IMG/VR virus record: IMGVR_UViG_3300009168_000004
Location: 11,336-75,335 of that record
Length of the DNA: 64,000 bases
Strand: one strand, 5' to 3'
Source: a virus
Shown: positions 1-41,189 of the stretch, in pieces
How the letters are laid out: every line of letters begins with the position of its first letter
Numbering within the stretch: position 1 is the first letter of the stretch
The notes under the pieces: model-generated
The model's database searches: none
What the model was told of the DNA's origin: nothing
The model's input: only the letters and a program-made list of their open reading frames with translations
Position numbers and translations under genes: made by a program

Positions 1-142
1 TGCTCGGGTCCTTGCTGCACTGCTCCGCCCAGAAGTGGGCCAGCGCCATGTAGCGACGATCCCACTTGTCCTGGTTCAGACGCGGCAGGCGGTAGTCCTC
101 CTCGGGGCCTCCGAGCCCGCTGAGATCGATCTCATCGCCCAT
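1..142 (-). CDS. dCMP deaminase, N-terminal part (runs off the left edge)
   Basis: Not in the ORF track. Manual translation from ATG at 142 gives MGDEIDLSGLGGPEEDYRLPRLNQDKWDRRYMALAHFWAEQCSKDPS, matching the WD.xxM.LA...SKDPST start of dCMP deaminases. Confidence 0.75.
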   Translation of the reverse strand, partial: MGDEIDLSGLGGPEEDYRLPRLNQDKWDRRYMALAHFWAEQCSKDPS

Positions 143-593
143 CGTGGTCACCGACGGGCTTCCCGGCATTCATCTCGTCGTACCACCACGCGATGCGGCG
201 GTTCAGGATCGCCCGCTGGTCCGCGTCCGGGGGCTTCCACCCGGCGGGCTTCACCACGTCGAGCGAGTTCTTCCGCTTGGATCTGTCGTCGTCCCCGCCG
301 GTCGCCCGCTCCTTCGCCATGTTCGCCCTCTGGACGGTGTCCCAGAGCTCGCCCCAGGGCAGCCCCATCATGTGCCCGGTGCCCAAGGCGACGTAGACGA
401 GGTCGAGCAGCGCGTCCGCCGCCTTCTGAAGGCTGCCCTCCTCGACCGCCAGCTTGTACTCCAGCAGCTCCTCCATCATGAAGTCGAACCGGAACTTGCT
501 GTCGCCCTCGCTGAGCAGCTTCGGCGGGCCGGCGTCCGACCGATCGAGCCCGAACTTCCTGTGGAAGGCGCCGACGTCTTCAAACATTCCCAT
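132..593 (-). CDS. MazG-like/all-alpha NTP pyrophosphohydrolase
   Basis: V..FH.KFG, EELLEY, ADALLDLVYVALG and VQRANMAK...DVVKPAGWKPP motifs. Confidence 0.85.
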   Translation of the reverse strand: MGMFEDVGAFHRKFGLDRSDAGPPKLLSEGDSKFRFDFMMEELLEYKLAVEEGSLQKAADALLDLVYVALGTGHMMGLPWGELWDTVQRANMAKERATGGDDDRSKRKNSLDVVKPAGWKPPDADQRAILNRRIAWWYDEMNAGKPVGDHDGR

Positions 594-1437
594 TCTGCTT
601 CTCCTGTGCCAGGTAGGTGTCCATGTCGTTCTTGAAGACGTGGAGCGAGGTCATGTGCATACTGTAGGTCCAGGGCACGATCTCGTTCCACACCTGCGGG
701 TTCAGCCGGCGGCACTGCTCGATGACCCAGAGCAGGAGCCGGACGGCGAGGTAGCAATCGTCGTTGTAGTGCCGGATGAGGTCGCAGGACCTGAGCGGAT
801 ACCAGATCATCGCCCGCTTGTCCCGGACCATGATCTGGTAGCCCAGGGTGCAGACCTTTCGGCCCCCGTCGGACAGCCCCGTGTCCTCCGGGAAGAACAG
901 CGGGATGTAAGCCTGCCTTGTGTGGGGCTCCCGAGCCAGCAGGTCGATCAAATCCTGGAGGTCCCCGTAACCATGGGCGATCCCGTACTTGGGCCGGTTG
1001 TCCACCGCTGGCCATTTGCGAAGCCCGTACTCGCCGGCCGGCGGCTTGGGCAGGACCCCATCGTCGGTCCGACGGGCGAACTTCGGCCAGAGCCGTTCCA
1101 TGTACGTGTGGTTGAAGCGTTCGGTTTTGAACTTCGCTGCCGACAGGCCCCACGGCCACTTCGCCCACTGGGTTCCAGGGTTCAGGGGCTCGCCCCCGAC
1201 GCGCTCGAGGAAGTGGTCGTCGGCCCACGGCCGATTGCAGTTCGTGTCCTGTCGCCAGTGCTCCAAGCCTTCGCCCCCGTGCAGGGGCACGCTCACGTTC
1301 ACGTCCTGGAGCTCGAACGTGTCCGTGTTGACCGGGACGCCCTGCCACCGCTCAGTCTTGACCGGCGGGGCCTTTCTCATCTCCGCCTTCAGCTTCTCCC
1401 TCAGCTCCGTGAACGTCTCCGCTTGCACCGCCAGCAT
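580..1437 (-). CDS. Thymidylate synthase-fold enzyme, probably dCMP-specific (hydroxymethylase-like)
   Basis: TRQAY, catalytic Cys in VCTLGYQ, RSCDLIRHYNDD (Asp at the E. coli Asn177 position) and SLHVF. Confidence 0.8.
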   Translation of the reverse strand: MLAVQAETFTELREKLKAEMRKAPPVKTERWQGVPVNTDTFELQDVNVSVPLHGGEGLEHWRQDTNCNRPWADDHFLERVGGEPLNPGTQWAKWPWGLSAAKFKTERFNHTYMERLWPKFARRTDDGVLPKPPAGEYGLRKWPAVDNRPKYGIAHGYGDLQDLIDLLAREPHTRQAYIPLFFPEDTGLSDGGRKVCTLGYQIMVRDKRAMIWYPLRSCDLIRHYNDDCYLAVRLLLWVIEQCRRLNPQVWNEIVPWTYSMHMTSLHVFKNDMDTYLAQEKQNGNV

Positions 1438-1699
1438 ACTTCTCCGCCTCCATCTTTGCCCTGGCCTCCGGCGTCATCGCGTGGACCAGGAAGTTGCATC
1501 CGTCCTTCTTGATGTCGGTCACCACGCCGCACTTATCACAGGACCCCGTCTCAAAGAAAGTGTTCGCCTCCGACATGGTCAACCGCTGACCGCAGCCGGC
1601 GCAGGAGAACTTCTGGTACACGTCCGCCCCTCGAGCGATCGCATCGTTGGCTGCGATCACGACTTCGTCGAACGGGTGGTTGAGCTTATTCGCTGACAC
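1352..1699 (-). CDS. Small Zn-ribbon protein
   Basis: CAGC...CDKC pairs. The GTG start at 1699 overlaps the end of the upstream MTase gene. Confidence 0.6.
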   Translation of the reverse strand: MSANKLNHPFDEVVIAANDAIARGADVYQKFSCAGCGQRLTMSEANTFFETGSCDKCGVVTDIKKDGCNFLVHAMTPEARAKMEAEKYAGGASGDVHGAEGEAEGGDEKGPAGQD

Positions 1700-3104
1700 T
1701 GGCTGGCTCCGTTGATTGGGGAACTCCCCGGGGAATTTTACGGGGAGTTCTGGGACTTCTTGTGCGAACGCGGGGAGCATCCTCAGTCCTGGCGGCGCGG
1801 GGCGGCGGGGCGATGGGCTTCATCCCGTACTTGTCCACCCGGACGGCGCACCGACGGGAGAGCCAGCAGGCCCCGCAGGCCTTCTTCTGGTCCGTGTAGC
1901 CCACGTTCTGACAGTACCAGGTCTTGGCCTCGTCCACGTGCTCGTTGGGCTGATTGACCCGCTCGCCCGTCGTCTCGAACGGCTCCTTCTTGATGTGCGC
2001 CATGATCTGCTTCGAGACGTACGTGCAGAACTGGATGGGCATGGCCTTGCCGGTCTGCCGGACCATGTGCTGGTTCAGGTCGTGGCTCCACTCCCCGCGG
2101 TCGTTGAGGACGGTTCCGTAGAAGACGAAGTCGTCGGGGAAGCCCTGGATGCGGGCGCGCTCCCGGACGGTGTAGGGCTCGCCCCGGTGGAAGTGGACCG
2201 AGGCGTTGCCGCCGGTCAGGACGTGCGCCGGTCCGTCCCAGTGGCCCTTGAGGAACCCGATCCGCTTGACCATGGGGTTGTCGCCCCGCGCCGCCCGCTC
2301 CTTCTTCGACTCCTCGCTCGGGTGGTACTCCAGGGTGAAGCCGCCCTTCTTGTCGCGGAAGTACTCCTTCACCTCATCCCATGAGTTCTTCTTCCTGTAC
2401 CTGCCGAGGTTCAGGGCGCGGAAGCAGTCCAGCGTCCCGTCGGCCGGATCGTGGTTTGGAAAGTTGCCGCGAGCCCTGGGCTCGGGCAGGTCGCCGATCA
2501 CGTCCTTGACCTTCAGCGAGTGGACGGCCTCGCCGGGGATGAAGGTCCACTTCTCCTTCCGCAGCGCGCCCAGCATGAACATCCGGTCTCGCCCCTTCTG
2601 AACGTTGCCGTAGCCCCAGTTGCTGACCCACTCCGGGAAGAGGTCGTAGTCCGGCAGCAGCTCGTGATACTTCGCCATCGGGAACGCCATGAAGGACTTG
2701 GGCAGGTCGTCCATCACGAAGTACCGGGGCTTGAACTCCGCCACCAGCTCGCAGAAGAGCGGGATGTCTGCGGGGTCGAACATCTTCTCGCGCTGGCCGG
2801 GGTTGGCTCCGGACAGGCGGCTGAAGTTGCCGCACTCCGGGTGGCCGAGGGCGATGTCCGCGTTGCTGAACCTCTGGAACTCCTCCTCGGTCATCGTCGG
2901 CCGGTCGTTCGGGAAGAGCGCACCGGGGTAGTTGACCTCGAAGGTGTTCTGCCCGTGGGCGTCCTTCTCGTGGTAGTACTTCCGCCACTCCACGTTGCCT
3001 TCGATCTTGAACCCGGCTGCTCGGGCTCCGATCAGCATCGATCCGATGCCGCAGGTTATGCCGACGGCCCTGAGCTGGTCATCGGTCTTCGGTCGTCGAG
3101 CCAT
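1686..3104 (-). CDS. Non-canonical C5-cytosine methyltransferase family protein (candidate carboxymethyltransferase)
   Basis: Motif I TCGIGS, motif IV GHPECGNFS, motif VI FVMDDL (normally ENV), motif VIII QKGRDRMF, motif IX TVRERARIQGFPDDF, motif X RQTGKAMP (normally GNA/GNS). C-terminal four-Cys cluster. Confidence 0.85.
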   Translation of the reverse strand: MARRPKTDDQLRAVGITCGIGSMLIGARAAGFKIEGNVEWRKYYHEKDAHGQNTFEVNYPGALFPNDRPTMTEEEFQRFSNADIALGHPECGNFSRLSGANPGQREKMFDPADIPLFCELVAEFKPRYFVMDDLPKSFMAFPMAKYHELLPDYDLFPEWVSNWGYGNVQKGRDRMFMLGALRKEKWTFIPGEAVHSLKVKDVIGDLPEPRARGNFPNHDPADGTLDCFRALNLGRYRKKNSWDEVKEYFRDKKGGFTLEYHPSEESKKERAARGDNPMVKRIGFLKGHWDGPAHVLTGGNASVHFHRGEPYTVRERARIQGFPDDFVFYGTVLNDRGEWSHDLNQHMVRQTGKAMPIQFCTYVSKQIMAHIKKEPFETTGERVNQPNEHVDEAKTWYCQNVGYTDQKKACGACWLSRRCAVRVDKYGMKPIAPPPRAARTEDAPRVRTRSPRTPRKIPRGVPQSTEPASVSE

Positions 3105-3105
3105 G

Positions 3106-4476
3106 TCAATACTGCTCCCCTGTGAAGATCATGACGAGCAGCTTACGATAGTCCTCGGGGGATCTGTCCACCTCCTTTGTCCGCAGGGGGATCTTGGGAG
3201 CTTCTGCGAGCCCCCTCGGCAGGTCTTCGCTGAACATCGCCCGCAGCAGCCCCTTGTCCCGACGGTCGATCCAGGGCACGCCCATCGCCCCCTCGACCAC
3301 GGACCGGGCCAGGAATGGGGACCTCAGCTCGATCGCGTGCCGCATCATCACCCGGTCGAGCCGGGGCAGGTGCCACATGACCATCTCCTGGAAGATGTCG
3401 CTGTACTGAGAGTCGTATCGCATCGCTCGGCCGTAGCCGCCGAAGCACTCGTCGGCCCCGTCCCCGGTCAGGACCACGGGCTCGCTGATCGCGTTGGCCA
3501 GCGCAATCTGGGGGATCAGGGAGCCGAGGTCGACGGGCTCCTGCATGTAGTGCAGGCCCTCCTCCAGGGTTCCGGCCTCCCAGCTAATCACCTTGGCCTC
3601 CGCATCGTTCTCGTTCATCAGGAGCTGCACCCTAGCAAGCTCCTGCGCGTTCGTCAGGTCGGTGGGGTGCTCGACGGGCTGGGCGTAGTAGGGGACGACC
3701 TGGTCGCTGAACCTGCGGGCCAGGGTGTAGACGATCGAGCTGTCGAGCCCGCCCGAGACGAGGCAGGCCACTGGCACGTCGGCCGACAGGACCCGCCGCT
3801 TCGTGGCCTTCACGATCTCCTCCCTGAGGTCGTCGTAGTTGCTGTGCCACTGGGGCTCCAGCTTGTCGACGACCTGCGCGATGACTCGGCCCGACGGGAA
3901 GAGGCGCACGTACTCTCCGGGCAGGACCTTCTTGATCTCGTTGTAGGGCGTCCTCCGCTGGTCCGGGCAGTAGCCCCACTTGATGCAGGCGGACATGTAG
4001 ACCTTGTCGAAGGTCACCGGACCGCGGGACTTCAGAGGGTCCAGCTCGGAGCAGGCGGCGACGATCTTGTCGGCTCGGTAGTAGAGCGGCTTCTGCGCCA
4101 GGTAGTCGACCAGGCAGTGGAGAGACTCCTCGTTGGAGTTCAAGGCGACGATCGACCAGAAGCCGTCGTACTCGGTGAAGCCCATCGGGCCCTGGTCGAT
4201 CCACGTGTCCATCGCGATGGTGCTGTCGCAGTCGGCTCCGGGGAAGCGCTCCCGGAAGTCCAGGATCTCGCCGACGAACCCGACGGACCACCCCTTCCGG
4301 TGCATGGGCTGATCGTTCTCTGGCCCCAGGCCCACGATGGGCAGGCGGACGTGGCCGATCGCCCCCGTCCTGGTCTGGGCGATCCGGGGCTCACGCGTGC
4401 CCCTGTGCTTCATCATCTCCACCGCTGCCGCGATGTCCTCGCCCTTCGCGCCGAGCTCGGCGTACACTCCGCACAT
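3106..4476 (-). CDS. Asparagine synthetase B-like glutamine amidotransferase
   Basis: N-terminal MCG (Ntn Cys), HRG, GHVRLPIVG, PP-loop SGGLDSS, TGDGADECFGGY and ELRSPFL. Confidence 0.92.
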   Translation of the reverse strand: MCGVYAELGAKGEDIAAAVEMMKHRGTREPRIAQTRTGAIGHVRLPIVGLGPENDQPMHRKGWSVGFVGEILDFRERFPGADCDSTIAMDTWIDQGPMGFTEYDGFWSIVALNSNEESLHCLVDYLAQKPLYYRADKIVAACSELDPLKSRGPVTFDKVYMSACIKWGYCPDQRRTPYNEIKKVLPGEYVRLFPSGRVIAQVVDKLEPQWHSNYDDLREEIVKATKRRVLSADVPVACLVSGGLDSSIVYTLARRFSDQVVPYYAQPVEHPTDLTNAQELARVQLLMNENDAEAKVISWEAGTLEEGLHYMQEPVDLGSLIPQIALANAISEPVVLTGDGADECFGGYGRAMRYDSQYSDIFQEMVMWHLPRLDRVMMRHAIELRSPFLARSVVEGAMGVPWIDRRDKGLLRAMFSEDLPRGLAEAPKIPLRTKEVDRSPEDYRKLLVMIFTGEQY

Positions 4477-4614: not shown

Positions 4615-4881
4615 TCAGTCTGTCTTCTTGGCCGGCGGGCTCCGGGGCAGGAGCGGCTTCGCGTCCGGGTTGAAGAGGTTGCGGCCGGAGCCGAACGTGT
4701 AGTCCTCAGCGCTCCGGCTGCGACCTGGCATCCCTGCTGTGCGGCGGACGGGGCGCTGTGGGGGCGGAAGGTCCGTTATGAGGCGTGTGAGCTCCCTCTT
4801 GCTCCTCTGCCGGATCGCGTACAGCGCCAGGACGGCGACGACGAAGACCAGGATTGCGATTGCCCAAGCTATCGTGTTCAT
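4615..4881 (-). CDS. Small membrane-anchored hypothetical protein
   Basis: MNTIAWAIAILVFVVAVLALYAIR hydrophobic N-terminus; ATGA overlap with the upstream gene. Confidence 0.65.
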   Translation of the reverse strand: MNTIAWAIAILVFVVAVLALYAIRQRSKRELTRLITDLPPPQRPVRRTAGMPGRSRSAEDYTFGSGRNLFNPDAKPLLPRSPPAKKTD

Positions 4882-5150
4882 TTGTCTCTCTGTGCTTCTG
4901 GAATGCCGAGGTGTGCGTACCCGGCGATGTCGTCCCAAGTATCCTTCAGGTCCGGGTCGCCCGTGAGCAGGCGGTGGACTTTGTGCGCGATCATCCGGAG
5001 CGAAGCCCTCTGCCCCCGGCTCATCGCCTGCCAGTTCTTGGCCTTCTCCCAGATCTCGATCGTGGCCTCGCTGATCTCCGCTCCGTCGTCCCAGTTGCCG
5101 TGCGTCGACTTCCGCTCTTCTCGAAGTTCCTTCGTCGTGCTCGTAGACAT
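4878..5150 (-). CDS. DUF6378-like phage protein
   Basis: ER.STHG, MIAHKVHRLLTGDP and DTWDDIAGYA motifs. Confidence 0.75.
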   Translation of the reverse strand: MSTSTTKELREERKSTHGNWDDGAEISEATIEIWEKAKNWQAMSRGQRASLRMIAHKVHRLLTGDPDLKDTWDDIAGYAHLGIPEAQRDK

Positions 5151-5593
5151 CAGTATCGTCCTTGGTACAGGTCAAGAAGGAGCAGGCCGACCAGCGCCCG
5201 CACCGTCGGGTCGTTGTAGAGCAGCGTCCGGCCGGAGGTGTGCGGGATCAGCCGCCAGATCACGCCGTCCACGAGCTGTGGGTGTATCAGGACTTTTTCA
5301 ATCTTCCGTGAAAGCCGGTGGTTCAATTCCGCCCTGACCTCATCGCCCAGGACTACGACCGTGGTCCCGACGGGAGCGTGGAGCCGGAGCTCGAAGGGGT
5401 GGTCCAGGATGTTGCGGCGGCGGAACGATCGCTCGTAGTCCACGCTGCTGATGGTCGGGGCCACATCCTTGATCAGCCGCCAGAGCCGCCACCCGGCGGA
5501 CCGGATCGGGGTCGCGCACAAGGCGTCGATCGGGCGATCCGAGTGGGGGTTGGTCAGACCCAGCAGAAGCGGGGAGGTCTTCGGTTTGGCCAT
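5150..5593 (-). CDS. Uracil-DNA glycosylase-like fold protein
   Basis: LLLGLTNP, SAGWRLWRL, VVVLG and IPHTSGRTLLYN resemble UDG-superfamily motifs (HPSG-like). Confidence 0.55.
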   Translation of the reverse strand: MAKPKTSPLLLGLTNPHSDRPIDALCATPIRSAGWRLWRLIKDVAPTISSVDYERSFRRRNILDHPFELRLHAPVGTTVVVLGDEVRAELNHRLSRKIEKVLIHPQLVDGVIWRLIPHTSGRTLLYNDPTVRALVGLLLLDLYQGRY

Positions 5594-5615
5594 GAGCTGC
5601 ACCCTGAACCGAACC

Positions 5616-5901: not shown

Positions 5902-6600
5902 ATGGCCAGGAGATGGTTTGCCCCGACGGGCAATAAACCAAAGAGGGCGGAGCACTCACTGCAGTCGAAGGCCGTCGCGGAGCTGACGGTCAAGCTGCGG
6001 CGCGAGGTGTTTCTCACTGCGATCCCGAACGGCGATCATCGTTTGATCCCGGTCGCTGTCCGGCTGAAGGCCGAGGGGGTGAAGCCGGGTGTGGCTGACC
6101 TCATGTTTCTCGCGCCGGGTCCCGAGGTGTCCTTCATCGAGATGAAGGCCGGCCGGGGCAGTCAGTCGGACGAGCAGCTCGGCTTCGAGGCCATGTGCGG
6201 TCGGCTCGGCATCAAGTACGTGGTGTGCCGGTCAGTCGAAGAGGTCCTTGAAACTGTTGGTTCGTGGGGGTATCTGAAGAATGTCCAATCCATTCCTGGA
6301 TCACGCGGAGCGAATAGCTCCAGCGCCAGTCAAGCGAGAGTGGCGGCGCCAGGAGGCAAAGCAGGAGCGCGAAGACCAGAAGCGGTCGCCCGCCATGATC
6401 CTGCTGGAGAAGAAGCAGAAGGAGCAGAACGCGCAGTTGAAGTTGTACCGAGAGTGGAAGCGACTGGTCAGGGACGACATCAAGAAGGCGCACGGCCAGG
6501 ACTTCGCCAACCTCATGCGCATCCTCCGGAACCTGAAGCTGGCCGAAGTCGACGTCCTGGTCCTCTTCGTCGCCGAAGCGCGGTGGCTCCTCGAGTCTGA
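5902..6600 (+). CDS. VRR-NUC domain nuclease
   Basis: EHSLQ, AIPNG, GVKPGVADL, FIEMKAGRG.QSDEQ and VVCRSVEE. The domain ends near 6285; the rest of the ORF overlaps the next gene. Confidence 0.8.
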   Translation: MARRWFAPTGNKPKRAEHSLQSKAVAELTVKLRREVFLTAIPNGDHRLIPVAVRLKAEGVKPGVADLMFLAPGPEVSFIEMKAGRGSQSDEQLGFEAMCGRLGIKYVVCRSVEEVLETVGSWGYLKNVQSIPGSRGANSSSASQARVAAPGGKAGARRPEAVARHDPAGEEAEGAERAVEVVPRVEATGQGRHQEGARPGLRQPHAHPPEPEAGRSRRPGPLRRRSAVAPRV

Positions 6601-6751
6601 CCTGACCACCCGGCTGGCGACCCTCAGCTACATCGACGGGTCGCTGGTCCGATGCAACGTCCGAAACGGCCTGCCCCACTTCGACGACCCGCTGTGGGAC
6701 GAGCCACCCAACGCGTTCTTGAAAATCCGCAAGATGCTGACGGGCGTCTGA
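6281..6751 (+). CDS. Hypothetical protein
   Basis: Genome-typical codon usage; TGATG coupling to the next gene. Confidence 0.7.
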   Translation: MSNPFLDHAERIAPAPVKREWRRQEAKQEREDQKRSPAMILLEKKQKEQNAQLKLYREWKRLVRDDIKKAHGQDFANLMRILRNLKLAEVDVLVLFVAEARWLLESDLTTRLATLSYIDGSLVRCNVRNGLPHFDDPLWDEPPNAFLKIRKMLTGV

Positions 6752-7047
6752 TGCTGACCCGTCGGGACTTCCTCGCCGCGGCCATGACGACGTTCGTGGC
6801 ATCGGCCGCCGCCGGAGCCAGGGAGCCCCTGACCTTCGAGGAGAGGTGGGAGGGGAGCGGAAAGTCCGATCGCCAGAAGTTCGGCGACCGGAAGATTGAG
6901 ATGGAGATTGTCGAGCCGGACAAGCCGTCCGCCCTCGACGATGCGCCGTTCCGGGCGAGCCCGACGGTGCGAAAGCAGCCGACCTTTCGGCGGCGCCGCC
7001 GGCGCTGGCGGAGAAGGCGGCGAAGAGCACAGGAGCAGAAGAAGTGA
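6751..7047 (+). CDS. Small protein with a twin-arginine-like signal and poly-Arg tail
   Basis: MLTRRDFLAAAM at the N-terminus and RRRRRRWRRRRRR near the C-terminus. Confidence 0.6.
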   Translation: MLTRRDFLAAAMTTFVASAAAGAREPLTFEERWEGSGKSDRQKFGDRKIEMEIVEPDKPSALDDAPFRASPTVRKQPTFRRRRRRWRRRRRRAQEQKK

Positions 7048-7523
7048 ACAGCAGACCACACCAGCCTCAGAGGTTCCCCCGCGAGGCAGTACTGATGGAC
7101 AAGCTTGCCCAAGCGATCGATCTCGAACCCGAAGTCCGCCAGGAGCTGCCCCCGGCGGACGCCCCCGAGGCGGTCCGGGCCGGAATGGTCCTGCCTGACT
7201 ACGTCACGCACATGGACGGGGCGACCCGGTCCGGGATGCTCTCGGCTGCCGCCGTCGTCCGGGAGTACGAGGCCACGGCCAAGATGATCGACGAGATGGG
7301 GCAGGAGCTCCGGGCGTCCCAGGACCGGGTCGCTGAGATGATGAGCACCTACGCCGAGGCGTTCAAGAAGCTCCAGGACACGGTCCAGGCCTACCGGGAC
7401 GAGGGCAAGCGGCTGTTCGAGCAGGTCGAGTCCAGCTCCAAGCTGGCCGACCGCGTGTCTGAGACCTGCGACATGCTCCGGCGGGAGCTCGAAGAGGCTG
7501 GCCGCCGCGACGACAACAGTTGA
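7044..7523 (+). CDS. Coiled-coil hypothetical protein
   Basis: Helical heptad-like C-terminal half; start and stop overlap the neighbouring genes. Confidence 0.7.
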   Translation: MNSRPHQPQRFPREAVLMDKLAQAIDLEPEVRQELPPADAPEAVRAGMVLPDYVTHMDGATRSGMLSAAAVVREYEATAKMIDEMGQELRASQDRVAEMMSTYAEAFKKLQDTVQAYRDEGKRLFEQVESSSKLADRVSETCDMLRRELEEAGRRDDNS

Positions 7524-9357: not shown

Positions 9358-12300
9358 TTATCGCCCCGACGGGATCGGGGACACTTGGACTCTGGTTACG
9401 GGTTCGTGAGCCTCCCTGGCCCGAAGCCTGCCCTCGTCGACGAAGTGGGCGGCGAGGTGCAGAGCGACCGAGGGGGCGGCTTCGAGGATGCTCTCGTCGA
9501 CGAAGTGCGAGGACAGCTCGACGGGGCAGGACGCCATCACGAACTCGACCTCGACCAGGTACTGGAAGCCCATCGCGAAGCCCGAGGTTCCGAGGAAGCG
9601 ATACCAGGAGTACGCCGTCGAGTTGACCGAGAAGTCCAGGAGCTGGTCGATCTGATCGATCAGGAGCGGAGAGCCGATGGCGGTCCAGGACGACCCGTCC
9701 GCGCTGCCCTGGAACTGGTAGGTGCCGAGCTGGTCCGCCGAGGACTGCACCACCCGGACGCCGGTGATCTTGGCCGGCACGTCGAGGGCGAACTTGATGT
9801 AGAGCCCGGTGACGTCCGCGTTCATGTCGATGCCGAGGGCGTCGGTGACCCCTGAGCTGAACCAGTTGAAGGCGCCGTCTACGATGTTGCTGGCGGTCCC
9901 CTCGAAGGTGGCCAGGTCCGTGGTGACCGCGATGCGCCCCGTCCGGTCGCCGATCCGCAGGTTGCATGGGTTGGTGTCCGTGATCTCCACAGAGAGCACG
10001 CCCTCGTCCACGAAGTGCGCCTCGAGCGCCGCCGGTCCCGGCGGACCGCCATCGATGTCGAAGATCGACTCGTCGACGAAGTGGGCTTCGAGGCTGACGA
10101 CCGCAGGGGGATCTCCCGCGCACGCACCCGACGAGAGCTGGGGGAACATGCGAAAGTCGAACTCGTTGATGCCGATCGAGTTGAGCCAGCCGGGGGTGCT
10201 CTTCTGCCGGATGCGGTACCACCGATAAGATCCTGGGGCGTCGACGTTCTGCTCGCTCGTGAAGGCGAAGCCCGTGCCCGCGTGCCAGGGGTCGGTCAGG
10301 ACGTGGACGTCTGAGACGAAGTCGTCGTTGGAGCCCTCGAAGTAGTGCTGACCATGGAAGTCGGTTCCGGGGGTGAAGCCGTTCATCTTCGTGGTCTCGA
10401 TGAAGACCTTCTGCCGGAAGTCGAACTTGATGACCACGCCGGTCTGCGCCGTCGTGATGACGATGCCGCTCGCCGTGACGCCGTCCACCAGCTCGTGGAT
10501 CGCCCCAGAGTCAAGTGTGCCAGTGAGGCTCATCCCGATCCCATACGGACCATCGTTGTCGCGGTTGCCCAGGCTCTGCACGTACTTGTAGGTTCCGCAG
10601 GGGTTCCCCGCGCTGCCGCCGTCGATCCAGAACTCCACCTCCTGGATCTTCAGGGCGCCGGAGCCGCTGACCCTGCGCATGCGGTAGTAGCGGAAGAACT
10701 GATCGTTGTCCTCGAGCGTCGCGACCGTGCGGAAGTAGGAGCCATTGTTGACGATCTCGTTGGCCAGGTTCGTGGGGACCGAGCAGATCGTCCAGGTCGA
10801 GCCGTCGTTCGAGCCCTCCCACACTGCAGTCTGGTTCGTGTCCGCGTTGCCGGTCTGCCAGTAGATCGCCGCCTGGCGCACCATGCGGAGCGAGCCGAAG
10901 TCGAACTTGATCGCCCAGTTGGAGTCGACCAGGAGCGCGAAGGGGCTGAACCCGGTGCGCACCCCGTCCACGATGCAGTCCAGGTCAGAGCCCGTGTCCT
11001 CGGTCCCGGCGTCCAGGGAGACGACGATGTCTCCCGTCCGGTCGCCGGAGCCCAGGGCGTTCGCGTAGCTCAGGCAGATGTCGCCGGGGTCCAGGTTGGC
11101 CTCGAGGGTCCTGAACTGGACCTCCCGGACGAAGTGCGAGACCGACGAGCTGCCGGCCTGGAGCTCCAGCTTGTAGTGCAGGAACGCCTTGTCGTTCGCG
11201 TTGAAGCCGTTGTAGGTCGTGGTGTTGCCAATGTCGCTGCCGCCGATGCGGACGGGCTCCCGGCCGATCGCTTCGTAGGACGACCCGTCGTTCGATCCGT
11301 ACGCGCGCCAGAGCCCTTGAGCCGATGAGCCTGACTGAACCCACTTCATCTCATTGATGACCTGCGCCCGGATGAAGTGGAAGACCAGGCCGCCCGAGGT
11401 TCCGATCGTCAGCCAGGCCACGTCGTCGCCCGTGTCGCCGTCGAACCAGGACCCGTCGGCTGCAGCCTCCGACGGGTTGATCGTGAAGTCAGCGTCCACC
11501 GCCGTGACCGAGATCGCCCCGGTCCTGTCCACCGTGATGTAGGCCGGCAGGGGGTCGGGCACCGCGTCCGTGGCGCCGATGATGAACTCGATCTCCTCGA
11601 TCCACGCGTCGTCGGTCAGGATGACGTCGGGGTCTGTCTTGCGCAGGCGGTAGTACTTGTAGCCGTTCGGGTTGGTGAAGGTGTACTCTGCGTCTACGTC
11701 CTCGCCCAGCGCGATGCCAGTCATGAGTGGCACATAGCCGGTCTGTGGGGCATCTGACGCCTCAAACGTCCACACACCCAGAGCCTCGACGCTCTCCTGG
11801 TACCACTTGAAGCCCACGATCCGCTGCTTGAACCCGGACGGGCGGAAGTCGAAGACGATCGAGGCGCTGGTCTGGTTCAGCGCCTCGTCGAACTTGAACG
11901 AGCCCGTGGCGTCGTTCGTGAAGCTGCCGTCGATCAGCTTGGCCGCGTTGCCGGACAGGTCAGAGAAGTTCTGCGAGACCCAGATGGTGCCCGTCCGATC
12001 GCCCGTCCCTCCGGGCTCGCCGTAGTCTGGAGCCGGCGGCGGGTCCGGCGGCGGGTCCGGCGTCGTCTCGGAGGAGTTGATCTTGAACTCGAACTCGATC
12101 AGCTCCGGCACCGACGGCGGGACGACCGACTTCCCCTGCGTCATGCGGAAGTAGCGATAGCCGACGGTGCTCTGGAAGCCGGCGATCTCGATGCAGGCGA
12201 CCGCGTACTCCTCGCCAGCCGTGAACAGCCACAGGCCGCTCGCCAGGTTGACGTAGGTCGCATCGTCGTCTGAGCCCTCGAACAGCCAGACGCCCATCGT

Positions 12301-38200: not shown

Positions 38201-38568
38201 CCGGTGGCGCCAGTCTCACCCGGCGGGCCCTGGTCGGCGGCGTCGCCGAACACGGTCGACTGGGCTGGCCCCAGGGTCCGGACCCGCAGAGGAGCGACGA
38301 TCGCCCCGTCGTTGTGCTGGAGGAAGACGAGGACCTGCTCCGACGGGTCGTCGTTGTACACGGTCACCAGCTCGACCGTCCGGAGGATGCCCGCCCCAGG
38401 CGAGGGCGACGCCACGACGGTGCCCCCGCCCGCGTCCGCGACGATCGTGTTGAGCCTCCCCGGCGTGATCGTGTCGTCGATGGTGGTCTTGTCGACCCAC
38501 GACGCGTGGACGCGCGCCGCCCTGTCGGTGACGACCTCCAGCGTGTCGCCCTCCTGGAGTATCAGCAT
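35239..38568 (-). CDS. Collagen-like fibre protein with two DUF4082-like domains and a Gly-rich C-terminus
   Basis: Long Gly-X-Y tracts; duplicated IH.G.G.P...LG..GDYYIDT....LYGPK; WGGGGGGG. Confidence 0.85.
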
Positions 38569-41189
38569 CAGGTTGCCTCATCTTCGCTGTCGTCTTCGTC
38601 CTCAGTGATCCGCTCGAACTCTTTGATGCGGCCCTTCTCGTCGTGCTTCGTGACCGTCGTGATCTCCCGCCCGCCCCTGTTGACGATGGTCACGGGGACG
38701 GTGACGTGGATCGTCTGCTCGTCCTTCGGGGCGCGCTTGCTGAGGGCGGTCGCCGCGTCCTTCTGGGTCTTGAAGTTCCCGATCTTCCCGTTCTTGTCGT
38801 CGGCCCTCCACCTCACCGCCTCGCCCCGTCCCGACGCGACCGCACCCCCTGCGCCGCCGGACCTCTGCTCGTTCGTGACGACCTGCTTGACGGTGCCCAC
38901 CTTGGTGTTGCCCTTGTAGGCGTTGTAGGACTTGAGCTTGACCGGCGCCTCCTTGCCCAGGACCTTGGTCTCGCGGTTGTGGTCGGAGGCCTCGTACATG
39001 TCCAGGCCTGCGACCTGGCCGGCGAACTTGCCCTTCTCGGTGGTCTCTCCGACCTTGGGCGCAGCCGCTGCCGCCCCTCCGCCCCCGCCCGATCCGAACT
39101 GCCCGTTCTCTGCTCGCTCCTGGTTCTCGTTGTACTCGTCCAGGGCCACCTCGGGGACGTCGGTCTCGTTGTTGAAGCCCGTCATCTGGATCTCCTGGAA
39201 GACCTCGGGCCCGAGGACGATCTCGCCCCGGTAGGGCTCCATCTCGTCGATCTGCTCAGGCCCGTTGTAGGTGATCGTGACGTGCGGGTTGTAGTCCTCG
39301 TAGTCGTACGAGCAGCCCTGGTGCTTCAAGGAGGAGTGGCGCCAGGACAGGTCGGAGTTGCCGAAGGCGAGGACGACAGCCTTGCCGAACCTCTCGACGA
39401 TGCGGGGTCCGCCGGGGACGACGCGGATGTGCCCCTCCAGGTCCTGGCCCCAGGCCTCGCCCATCTTGATCCAGTCGACCGCCTCCTTCGAGTACATGAT
39501 CGTGACGTGCATCTCGGCCGGGGTGACCGTGGACTTGAAGCCCTGCGAGGCCGCCCAGTCGATGATGGCCTGCGCGTTCAGCACCCTGCGGTAGACGTAG
39601 AGGGGCTTCGGGGTCGCGTCGGCGAGGGCGTCCCGGACGGCGGCGTTGCCCGACGGGGTCCGCATCCTGTCCCTGCCCTTGATCCTGCGGCGCCGCTGGG
39701 CAGCCCGGAAGTCGTTGGCCGCCCTCTTGGCCGGGTCCAGGTTGCTGTTGGCGGGCTCGGGCAGATCCGCGTCTGGGTCCTCGGGGTCCACCTCGGCGTT
39801 CGGGTCAGCGTTCGGATCGACCACGGGCTCAGGTTCTGCGCGCAGACCCTCCTCGTGGTCTGGGTCGTCGAACTCCTCGATGATCTGCTCGATGCCTGGG
39901 TAGGTTCCGTCCTCGATGAGCTGCGCCTCCCTGGCCTTCTTGAGCACCACCGGGTCCAGGATCGCGGCATCCACGTCCACCTTGAACGTGTCGGCCTTCT
40001 TCTTCTCCAGGTCAGCCTTCTGCTCCGGCGTCATCTGCCAGAGGGAGTTCCACACGTAGAAGATCTCCTCGGGCTTGGAGCCGAGGGCGGACCGGATCAA
40101 GACTTCGTCCAGGCGCCAGAGCACCGGGGAGTCGTCGTTCTTCTGCTTCGAGGAGACCGAGTCGTAGTAGTTCCTGGTGTCGCTCTCGCCCGTCGCGCTC
40201 ATGCCCGCGGGGGACTGGCCGAAGAAGCGGGTCGCCGGGATGTCGGCTGCGCCGCAGACCATCAGGAAGTACATCTGCAGGATCTCGGGCAGGGACGCGA
40301 ACGAGGCCACCTGCCTCTGCCACTCCTCCTCCTTGTCGATCAGGAGCATGGAGTGCACGCCCTTGATGATGTTGGCGAGGCCGAACCGCTCGAGCAGGTT
40401 CCGCTCGTAGGTCCTGGATGAGATGTTCAGCGTCAGCCCTGGGATCTTGATGATGTCGATCTTCGACTCCGCCACGAGCTGAGCCACCGACGCAGTCACC
40501 AGGCCGCAGGACTTGATGGCGTCGGCGACGTTCAGCAGGACGGAGTCGCCCCAGGGCTGCTTGGTCGTCAGGACGTCCTGTCTCGGCATCCCGACGAAGG
40601 GGACGACGCGGCTCGGGTGGAAGCGGACCAGGGTGCCGTTGAACAGGGAGTGGCGCTCGTAGTAGGAGGGCTCACCGTACCAGGGCGAGGTGATGTCGTC
40701 GATCATGGGGCCAGGCGACACGTCCCAGCGGCTCACCGGGTGCAGGAACTCCAGGTCTCCGACCCTGACCGCCTCGATGTCCACCGGGGTCTCGTTGGAT
40801 GCGCCCTTGATGCCCATGACGATGCCGGCGCCCCCGTAGAGCCGAGCCTTCTGCTTGGCCACCTTCATCTTCTGCTGCAGGCCAAGGCGCTGCTCCTCCG
40901 CCTCGATCGCCGTGATCTCCTCCGGGTCGCCGGCCTGCCAGGACCGCCACTCCCTGGTGGCGTCCTCCGCCGGAATGTCGATGAGCTTCCGGGCGATCCA
41001 GTCGCCGCGGTAGGCCGCGTCGGCCTGCGCCTGGTCCATGTCCGGCATGACCCAGTTGACGCCGGTCATCTTGTCCTTGGCCGTGCCGAGGCCCGTCGCC
41101 AGGTTCTCCAGGCTGTCCCGCGCAGACTTCTGGCTCGGTGGGGGCTTGGATGCCCGACGGGTTGGTGCGGAAGCTGCTCTCTTAGCCAT
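38568..41189 (-). CDS. Portal protein (DUF1073-type) fused to an Acb1-like 2H phosphoesterase
   Basis: [24 protein letters not shown] and [28 protein letters not shown]. The C-terminal part carries MHVTIMYS and PHVTITY. Confidence 0.9.

Follow-up and report, generated by a model that had tools for sequence, protein, structure and literature searches.

A motif X lysine methyltransferase homologue and an AsnB-like partner, added recurrently to a phage cytosine-replacement kit, probably build an amide-bearing cytosine by a route other than carboxy-SAM

Phages carrying a predicted cytosine-replacement kit recurrently add to it a pair of genes, encoding a C5-methyltransferase (C5-MTase)-fold enzyme with a lysine in motif X (the Lys-type enzyme) and an AsnB-like amide synthetase. 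As these two genes join a cytosine-replacing kit again and again, their products probably build an undescribed amide-bearing cytosine, by a route that gene content suggests is other than carboxy-SAM (Cx-SAM). The window analysed here comprises 64,000 nucleotides (positions 11,336 to 75,335 of IMG/VR record IMGVR_UViG_3300009168_000004) of a complete, terminally redundant phage genome of 75 kb, and it opens with a DNA-precursor and modification block containing the pair. The bin containing the phage is 5.8 Mb in size and 100% complete, and the host of the phage was assigned via metagenomic binning. Soil, freshwater and marine samples yielded dozens of near-complete genomes of uncultured phages that carry the pair; no cultured phage was found to carry it, and the literature searched contained no experimental characterisation of the Lys-type family.

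The Lys-type enzyme (472 aa; 1686..3104, minus strand) scored 63.6 bits against PF00145, above the cut-off of 22, and 32.3 bits against TIGR00675, below the cut-off of 100.65. Its AF2 model (pLDDT 90) matched HaeIII, HhaI, DNMT1 and CmoX (8yf3) in Foldseek with E values of 1e-14 to 1e-17 (1.1e-14 for 8yf3 and 9.5e-17 for HaeIII), which places it in the C5-MTase fold. Its motifs read TCGIGS (I), HPEC (IV), MDDL (VI), QKGRDR (VIII), RERARIQGFPDDF (IX) and QTGKAMP (X). Compared with the canonical FxGxG/PC/ENV/QxRxR/GN(A/S)V series, the cysteine and QxRxR are retained, and the conserved departures are Phe to Thr in motif I, Pro to Glu before the cysteine, ENV to DDL, and Asn to Lys in motif X. The catalytic Cys91 (codon 2832..2834, minus strand, in GHPECGNFS) is invariant in the family alignment and aligns with the PC-motif cysteine of 3g7u, HaeIII and gp123 of Streptomyces phage TurkishDelight. 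Over the family the catalytic motif is PEC, PDC, PKC or PSC, and the SPPC of CmoX is absent; the residue preceding the cysteine is acidic (PEC/PDC) in AsnB-containing loci and Lys or Ser in seven AsnB-less loci, a small sample of related loci. Asp132-Asp133-Leu134 (2703..2711, minus strand) takes the place of ENV. Among the cytosine contacts of CmoX (Glu to N4, Arg to O2), the Glu is replaced by the invariant Asp132, and Arg172 and Arg174 of motif VIII are invariant. The cofactor-site residues Glu39 and Trp40 are also conserved. A C-x11-C-x2-C-x5-C cluster at the C-terminus (Cys398, 410, 413 and 419; 1848..1913, minus strand) is nearly invariant in the family alignment, is missing from the shortest members (373 aa), and probably binds metal.

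Lys353 (codon AAG, 2046..2048, minus strand, in VRQTGKAMP) occupies the motif X position held by Asn in HaeIII and HhaI and by Arg in CmoX; profile alignment placed it on the Asn of M.HaeIII GNAVP and, in the TurkishDelight enzyme of CmoX type, on the GRAVP Arg. The lysine is essentially invariant (GK[AFCS]MP) down to 26% identity across homologues from a 5.8-billion-protein collection, in which the family numbers 567 proteins, and across about 140 loci, with Arg at this position in only 1 of about 140 relatives. The motif X change noticed by the sequence-only reading is thus real and no product of chance. It had also proposed that the lysine lies where a cationic residue permits the use of carboxylated SAM, and this agrees with the engineered carboxymethyltransferases M.MpeI N374K and M.CviPI Y205K/R, in which a cationic side chain at that pocket position forms a salt bridge to the cofactor carboxylate (PMC13288465), and with Arg350 of SpCmoX (PMC12783734); Dcm N436K, invoked as a further precedent, is not mentioned in PMC13288465. 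The engineered enzymes share with the window enzyme a lysine at the equivalent pocket position, but they are otherwise canonical proteins with a single substitution and are fed with Cx-SAM, whereas the window enzyme has several rewired motifs and no Cx-SAM source that we could find. Nature has thus produced a positively charged motif X residue in another MTase lineage as well, one that diverged deeply. The full-length fold match to DNA-bound MTases, the presence of a PF01555 N6/N4 DNA MTase fused to or beside the enzyme in ~25 loci (with the fusion in several phages), the occurrence of tandem paralogues and a pI of 9.0 together suggest that the Lys-type enzyme most likely acts on DNA.

The partner gene (3106..4476, minus strand) encodes a predicted glutamine-dependent AsnB-like amide synthetase of 456 aa, with an intact Cys2 (MCGV start) and PP-loop (SGGLDS). 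The protein matched Asn_synthase (115.7 bits) and GATase_6/7 in Pfam as well as AsnB (1ct9), is ~100 aa shorter than E. coli AsnB, and missed the asparagine synthase equivalog level (TIGR01536, 159.6 versus 267.1 bits; NF006949, 107.3 versus 499 bits). An MCG or VCG start was present in 57 of 63 homologues and the PP-loop in 60. Carboxylates are the substrates of AsnB-family enzymes. The stop codon of the AsnB-like gene (TGA, 3106-3108) is separated by a single base from the MTase start codon (ATG, 3102-3104), so the MTase gene directly follows an intact AsnB-like gene, as had been reported from the sequence alone. The two genes share a strand in 63 of 73 non-redundant MTase-seeded loci, and among loci seeded with the thymidylate-synthase (TS)-like gene described below (the best 80 of 435 contigs) 15 had both genes, one had the AsnB-like gene alone, one had the MTase gene alone and 63 had neither. 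Translational coupling at the window locus and joint presence and absence across phages indicate that the two genes form a real functional pair.

Two natural systems resemble this pair. CmoA, CmoX and CmoY of Synechococcus phage S-B43 (Yang et al., Nat Commun 2025, PMC12783734; PDB 8YF3) likewise combine a phage C5-MTase fold, a cationic residue at the HhaI Asn304 position and an adjoining AsnB-family ATP-dependent amide ligase, with a likely role in DNA camouflage. However, SpCmoX has Arg350, SPPC and ENV where the window enzyme has Lys353, HPEC and DDL, and at the sequence level 8yf3 is matched only marginally (E 0.009 with the single sequence and 4e-4 with the profile); SpCmoY uses glycine, whereas the window ligase has a glutaminase domain; and the window pair lacks a detectable CmoA and is embedded in a dCMP-specific TS-like kit. 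In TurkishDelight, gp121 to gp125 encode two ParB proteins, a CmoX-type MTase, a glutamine amidotransferase-AsnB-like protein and a CmoA-like protein, and this phage provides a natural precedent for CmoX beside a Gln-type AsnB-like protein. As in the window, the gene right after that for the MTase-fold enzyme encodes a Gln-dependent AsnB-like protein of ~460 aa, and the window AsnB-like protein shares 25% identity with gp124 along nearly all of its length (E 4e-23). The cassette matches the Gln-type ligase class that was predicted, not assayed, in PMC12783734, where an ammonia-derived amide is predicted for the second-largest ligase cluster. In contrast to the window enzyme, gp123 belongs clearly to the dcm superfamily (166 bits) and carries SPPC, ENV and GRAVP, it is accompanied by the CmoA homologue gp125 and the ParB proteins, and no TS-like kit was present in the stretch of TurkishDelight examined.

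Since a CmoX-like reaction would depend on Cx-SAM, we looked for CmoA with the profile TIGR00740 (cut-off 193 bits). No CmoA was detected in the window, the whole complete phage genome or its bin, in any of 35 records of related phages, among which 17 reach at least 90% completeness, or above the cut-off in any of 61 host-order genomes, where the best score was 48.5 bits. As a positive control, the same profile scored TurkishDelight gp125 at 89.5 bits. The sequence-only reading had seen no CmoA-like synthase in the window and had called for a search of the remaining genome and the host; that wider search returned no source. By comparison, CmoA is carried on 4257 of 5615 CmoX contigs (76%; PMC12783734). 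Judged by gene content, this MTase lineage with lysine at motif X evidently cannot rely on CmoA.

The surroundings of the pair point to a different starting material. The TS-fold enzyme (285 aa; 580..1437, minus strand; phrog_160) has Cys196 and, at the TS Asn177 position, Asp227, both invariant in the family. Its Asp227 aligns to the corresponding Asp of MilA, and the closest solved relatives of its profile are the CMP hydroxymethylase MilA (2.7e-19) and the T4 dCMP hydroxymethylase gp42 (1.3e-13), and on these grounds the enzyme is predicted to be cytosine-specific. Next to it lie a MazG/PRA-PH-type NTP pyrophosphohydrolase (132..593, minus strand; PF01503, 51 bits; phrog_671), a candidate dCTPase, and the 5' part of a dCMP deaminase gene (2..169, minus strand; PF00383, 81.8 bits) that leaves the window at its low-coordinate edge (contig C31, 10959-11504). 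The MazG-type protein was found in 33 of 73 MTase-seeded loci, with a dUTPase_2-type protein instead in another 27, and dCMP deaminase in 59 of 73; of 62 deaminase copies, 55 carry the HAE and PCxxC motifs. A 150-aa UDG-superfamily-like protein (5150..5602, minus strand; phrog_12275) travels with the kit, in 44 of 73 MTase-seeded loci and most TS-seeded loci; its link to UDG is an atlas structure/feature match to UDG-bearing clusters, a lead only. A DUF6378 protein (4878..5150, minus strand) is linked in closer relatives only (16 of 73 loci). A possible small Zn-ribbon ORF (CxxC...CxxC; 1352..1780, minus strand), whose true start is uncertain, fills the 248-bp gap between the MTase and TS-like genes. 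Minimal loci run from the NTP pyrophosphatase gene through the MTase-like and TS-like genes to that for dCMP deaminase, with overlapping stops and starts, and a gene for a family A DNA polymerase often lies nearby. The TS-like gene was present in 66 of 73 MTase-seeded loci, the misses being mostly truncated contigs, whereas it occurs on 435 viral contigs with the MTase on only 16 of the best 80, and the TS tree calls for the MTase to have been gained or lost at least 9 times. The pair is thus a recurrent add-on that depends on the kit, and the kit is far commoner than the pair.

In phage T4, dC is replaced by means of the dCTPase gp56, the dCMP hydroxymethylase gp42 and the dCMP deaminase cd, and the resulting 5hmC is decorated after replication. 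The window phage has the same combination of NTP pyrophosphatase, cytosine-specific TS-fold enzyme, dCMP deaminase and optional decorating add-on, and the match of the kit partners (dCMP deaminase, MazG or dUTPase_2) to the T4 logic of dC exclusion supports dC replacement. The differences are that T4 decorates with glycosyltransferases and the window phage with a C5-MTase-fold protein and an amidotransferase, and that gp42 is no more than a remote relative of the TS-like enzyme (profile E ~1e-13). With such a kit, cytosine C5 would already be substituted before the pair acts. We therefore tentatively favour the explanation, to which we give somewhat less than even weight, that the pair acts after replication and converts kit-installed 5-(hydroxy)methylcytosine to a base with an amide-bearing side chain. 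MazG, dCMP deaminase and the TS-fold enzyme would swap dCTP for a 5-substituted dCTP before replication, and family membership and conserved residues suggest that the substituent is most likely 5-hydroxymethyl. The Lys-type enzyme would then flip the kit-installed base out of DNA, with Cys91 at C6 and with assistance from Arg172, Arg174 and Asp132, and attach a carboxylate-bearing group at the C5 side chain, Lys353 holding the carboxylate as Arg350 does in CmoX; the donor would be a SAM-type cofactor or an amino acid, other than CmoA-made Cx-SAM. The AsnB-like enzyme, by the chemistry of its family, would adenylate the carboxylate and convert it to a primary amide with ammonia released from glutamine by the Cys2 glutaminase domain. 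The outcome would be a neutral, bulky, amide-bearing cytosine that likely shields the DNA from host nucleases.

One candidate chemistry for the side chain, which we regard as speculative, repurposes the C5-MTase fold on 5hmC in DNA: Cys91 would attack C6, the hydroxyl would leave to give an exocyclic methylene, an amino-acid-like, carboxylate-bearing nucleophile, gripped by Lys353 in the pocket that once took methionine, would add, and the AsnB-like enzyme would amidate it in a glutamine-dependent step. In vitro, C5-MTases couple 5hmC with thiols or exchange aldehydes; we know of no natural C5-MTase homologue that derivatises 5hmC. The TS-like product could also be 5-methyl instead of 5-hydroxymethyl, which would leave the MTase-fold enzyme without an obvious reaction; we know of no sequence rule that tells the two products apart. 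Further points count against the post-replicative explanation: the conserved Glu39 and Trp40 fit an enzyme that moves an alkyl group in the usual SAM-type manner onto a C5 free of substituents, the position of the MTase gene between the NTP pyrophosphatase and TS-like genes in minimal loci could mean action on nucleotides, and the host was assigned through metagenomic binning.

The conserved Glu39 and Trp40 suit a transfer from ordinary SAM of a part other than methyl, with 3-amino-3-carboxypropyl as the candidate, to cytosine C5 or to the 5hmC oxygen, followed by amidation of the alpha-carboxylate by the AsnB-like enzyme. Such a transfer makes CmoA unnecessary, the Phe to Thr change in motif I and the Asn to Lys change in motif X indicate that the methionine end of the cofactor pocket is remodelled, and the acidic PEC/PDC of AsnB-containing loci, against Lys or Ser in the seven AsnB-less loci, would suit a zwitterionic group, although these loci are few and related. 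TYW2 and diphthamide synthesis offer analogies for the transfer, and DPH6, which amidates diphthine, for the second step. To our knowledge no C5-MTase homologue transfers 3-amino-3-carboxypropyl, the proposal is purely inferential, and an unsubstituted C5 target would leave the strict dependence on the TS-like kit unexplained, so we consider it unlikely. Slightly less probable still is the pathway put forward by the sequence-only reading, in which Cx-SAM would give 5-carboxymethylcytosine on unmodified C and the AsnB-like enzyme 5-carbamoylmethylcytosine. Its lysine position (that of N374K, Y205K and CmoX Arg350), gene pair and natural precedent (the CmoX, Gln-type AsnB-like and CmoA cassette of TurkishDelight, together with the ammonia-derived amide predicted in PMC12783734) all stand, but its donor lacks support: no Cx-SAM source accompanies the pair in the genomes searched with a profile that does score the TurkishDelight CmoA, most CmoX contigs carry one, the SPPC and ENV Glu of CmoX are lost, and the obligatory dCMP-specific kit, whose presence had been overlooked, would occupy C5 beforehand.

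The gene order of minimal loci, with overlapping stops and starts, and the often adjoining family A DNA polymerase would fit a free-nucleotide block in which both enzymes of the pair work on dCMP or 5-hydroxymethyl-dCMP before polymerisation and the polymerase incorporates the finished base. We hold this to be improbable, as the enzyme retains an extensive target-recognition region, its whole length matches DNA-bound MTases, PF01555 DNA MTase fusions occur in several phages, and no C5-MTase is known to us to act on mononucleotides. The least credible reading takes the enzyme for a standard 5mC methyltransferase that uses SAM and whose motifs have drifted, beside an unrelated asparagine-supply gene: engineered K/R variants still methylate with SAM (PMC13288465) and the PF00145 score is above threshold, yet hundreds of sequences, at identities as low as 26%, share the motif changes without variation, the MTase and AsnB-like genes are almost always either both there or both missing, and the AsnB-like protein lies well under the asparagine synthase equivalog cut-offs (159.6 versus 267; 107 versus 499).

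The Lys-type MTase family is large and conserved in detail, and a cationic motif X residue in an MTase lineage that does not rely on CmoA implies that an alkyl donor, or else a reaction catalysed by the MTase fold, is still to be discovered. If the reading in which the C5-MTase fold is repurposed on 5hmC were true, hypermodified cytosine would gain a new chemical class, reached by an equally new enzymatic route that needs no kinases, glycosyltransferases or Cx-SAM. Epigenetic sequencing tools have come from phage DNA hypermodification, DM-Seq resting on 5cxmC and CxMTases. The bare TS-like kit occurs in cultured phages of Serratia, Pseudomonas, Brevundimonas and Gordonia, which makes these phages a practical chassis for the add-on pair. 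Phage DNA hypermodifications decide which host defences succeed.

The window belongs to a 75,335-bp contig (C31) assigned to a 5.77-Mb genome bin of 502 contigs. Since the contig carries an exact 123-bp direct terminal repeat at its ends (window end 64000 being the contig end) and its genes include those for a portal, a large terminase, a family A DNA polymerase and a D5-type primase-helicase, it is a complete phage genome and not a chromosomal island; its host is assigned indirectly, through its placement in the bin of a bacterial MAG. The block that opens the window lies on the minus strand and contains a dCMP deaminase gene running off the low-coordinate edge, genes for an NTP pyrophosphatase of the MazG type (132-593) and a thymidylate-synthase-fold (TS-fold) protein (580-1437), a small ORF that may encode a Zn ribbon, a C5-MTase homologue with Lys at motif X (Lys-MTase, 1686-3104), a glutamine-dependent AsnB-like gene (3106-4476), a DUF6378 protein (4878-5150) and a UDG-like protein of 150 aa (5150-5602), which is basic (pI 10) and predicted to adopt a UDG-superfamily-like fold. 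Beyond this block, the family match of a plus-strand VRR-NUC nuclease ORF (5902-6600) is confined to residues 7-129, and the low-complexity tail of this ORF overlaps the next plus-strand ORF (6281-6751) by ~320 nt, which may reflect a frameshift or a mis-extended ORF. Further along, the portal protein (38568-41189, minus strand; Phage_portal_3, 2.5e-99) ends in an Acb1 anti-CBASS phosphodiesterase domain at its C-terminus (PF23474, 4.3e-36), so that the predicted counter-defence enzyme would be tethered to the portal or packaged along with it.

The Lys-MTase matches PF00145, and the top structural matches of its AlphaFold model (pLDDT 90) are DNA-bound C5-MTases (HaeIII, HhaI and DNMT1/MET1) and CmoX (8yf3; E 1e-14). 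The sequence-only reading had described a natural Asn-to-Lys change at motif X, a retained catalytic Cys and an adjoining AsnB-like gene, and all three were borne out: in profile alignment Lys353 (AAG, 2046-2048) falls on the Asn of HaeIII GNAVP, the Cys is present in GHPECGNFS, and a single base separates the AsnB-like stop from the Lys-MTase start. The Lys is not a chance substitution, as it is kept almost without exception, in sequences as distant as 26% identity, across 567 relatives found among 5.8 billion proteins and ~140 fetched loci, with Arg in one locus only. Other motifs are altered as well (ENV to DDL, and Phe to Thr in motif I). The protein also has a C-terminal C-x11-C-x2-C-x5-C cluster (1848-1913, minus strand), missing from 373-aa family members, whose spacing we take to resemble the Fe-S cluster loop of EndoIII/MutY-type glycosylases. 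Inteins with a DUF559/MTES_1575 endonuclease domain are inserted in several Lys-MTase genes (L139:9947-12106; P0014, P0051, P0089 and P0105). A broken copy on a 2.78-Mb contig of an uncultured Alphaproteobacteria MAG (L014:10001-10635), with a frame break near residue 96 and a match that stops at residue 216, could be what is left of a decayed prophage and hint at host range.

The sequence-only reading named phage carboxymethyltransferases linked to amide ligases as a precedent, and this chemistry is real, as seen from the CmoX/CmoY work, engineered enzymes and a cassette in a Streptomyces phage. In Synechococcus phage S-B43, a phage CmoA produces Cx-SAM, the C5-MTase homologue CmoX (with an SPPC motif, and Arg350 in place of HhaI Asn304) produces 5-carboxymethylcytosine, and CmoY, an AsnB homologue, joins glycine to the CmoX product (Yang et al., PMC12783734). 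Among 5,615 CmoX-like sequences of that survey CmoA was found on 4,257 contigs, and ammonia use was predicted, not shown, for the second-largest ligase cluster, whose members include a glutaminase domain (PMC12783734). Enzymes with an engineered cationic residue at the motif X position (M.MpeI N374K, M.CviPI Y205K/R) accept Cx-SAM and retain SAM methylation (PMC13288465). Streptomyces phage TurkishDelight is a natural case of the glutamine-type ligase class, with gp121-125 encoding two ParB proteins, a CmoX-type MTase (gp123; SPPC, ENV and GRAVP), a Gln-AsnB-like protein and a CmoA homologue (gp125; TIGR00740, 89.5 bits). In profile alignment, Lys353 of the window enzyme falls on the Arg of gp123 GRAVP, Arg being the motif X residue of S-B43 CmoX also. 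Judged by sequence, the Lys family is far from CmoX: the window enzyme scores 32 bits against TIGR00675 versus 166 bits for gp123, and its single-sequence match to 8yf3 has an E of 0.009.

The sequence-only reading saw no CmoA in the window, and this holds for the whole phage and its 100%-complete bin, neither of which has a match to the CmoA model (TIGR00740). Nor was one found in any of 35 related viral records, of which 17 are estimated to be at least 90% complete and several have terminal repeats, while 61 host-order genomes gave nothing above the cut-off (best 48.5 bits versus 193). As the same model picks up the diverged TurkishDelight CmoA, an enzyme of the phage type would not have escaped the search. 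Together with the distance from CmoX, these absences fit poorly with transfer of a carboxymethyl group from Cx-SAM, and we regard that route as unlikely.

The genes around the Lys-MTase point to a cytosine replacement system. We clustered every ORF lying up to 8 kb from the gene in 73 non-redundant loci, each 8 kb or longer, and a TS-fold protein was found in 66, an AsnB-like protein in 63, a dCMP deaminase in 59 and a UDG-like protein in 44; a MazG-type pyrophosphatase occurred in 33 and one of the dUTPase_2 type in 27 others. The other frequent neighbors serve replication, namely a family A polymerase and the SNF2 and UvrD helicases. In the TS-fold family the catalytic Cys is invariant, as is an Asp at the position of thymidylate synthase Asn177, where, by a rule cited in PMC8670742, the residue switches specificity from uracil to cytosine. 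Among solved structures, the family comes closest to MilA CMP hydroxymethylase (2.7e-19) and T4 dCMP hydroxymethylase (1.3e-13); PDB entries 9iqu and 9iqc are close TS-like matches for which we traced no associated paper. A cytosine-type TS-fold enzyme, a dCTP-clearing pyrophosphatase and a dCMP deaminase together follow the T4 logic of replacing dC before replication. An Amidoligase_2 gene (PF12224, 1.3e-42; L015:7609-8619, minus strand) adjoins a gene for an AIG2/gamma-glutamyl-cyclotransferase-like (GGACT) protein (6590-7372, minus strand), and both lie on C31 upstream of the window, ~3–5 kb from the modification block; as only two of the 73 loci share them, they were rejected as pathway members, and Amidoligase_2 is probably a separate system.

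Our tentatively preferred reading is that the kit of TS-fold enzyme, deaminase and pyrophosphatase would put 5-(hydroxy)methyl-dC in place before replication, that the Lys-MTase would then, by covalent C6 chemistry on DNA, extend the C5 side chain with a group that bears a carboxylate, and that the AsnB-like enzyme would convert the added carboxylate to a primary amide with ammonia from glutamine. Amidation by the AsnB-like enzyme is kept from the pathway first proposed, while its Cx-SAM donor is left without CmoA support. Simple alkylation of an unsubstituted C5 would give no reason to need the kit, and full dC replacement would remove its substrate. There is a small chance that another part of SAM, such as aminocarboxypropyl, is transferred and then amidated as in diphthamide, and a plain methylase beside an unrelated AsnB is very improbable. 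Lys or Ser precedes the catalytic Cys (PKC/PSC) in all seven AsnB-less loci and Glu or Asp in AsnB-containing ones, a covariation in a small sample of related loci that hints at different transferred groups in the two sets.

A pathway wholly on free nucleotides would fit the minimal AsnB-less loci, in which the Lys-MTase gene sits between the pyrophosphatase and TS-fold genes with overlapping reading frames. We nevertheless hold it to be quite unlikely, counting as evidence for action on DNA the full-length match to DNA-bound MTases, the long stretch of variable sequence that separates motif VIII from motif IX, a pI of 9.0, true tandem paralogues in a few phages, and fusion to or a position beside PF01555 N6/N4 DNA MTases in ~25 loci. 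Most of the extra MTase genes in the loci are of this PF01555 kind and join the Lys-MTase cluster through the fusion proteins.

In the cultured-phage collection, neither the Lys-MTase nor the AsnB-like protein has a close relative (best matches at most 29% identity over partial length, or ~24% over most of the protein), and no phage carries the pair. TS-fold relatives occur in 113 cultured phages, and cultured phages such as Pseudomonas phage PMBT14 and Serratia phage Serbin have the kit without the pair; we found no paper on DNA modification in those with a TS-like kit, and none on the Lys-MTase/AsnB-like module in the literature searched. When the TS-fold protein was used as seed, 435 viral contigs were recovered, and nearly all of the 80 best loci had a deaminase, a pyrophosphatase and a UDG-like gene, the UDG-like protein accompanying the kit in most phages with or without the pair. 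Lys-MTase and AsnB-like genes were each present in 16 of these 80 loci, with both in 15, either one alone in a single locus each and neither in 63, and Lys-MTase presence changes at least nine times on the TS-fold tree (FastTree, 93 scored tips). This joint presence and absence, along with the repeated changes, indicates that the Lys-MTase and AsnB-like protein form a coupled, mobile add-on, and the pair occurs only on top of the dC-replacement kit.
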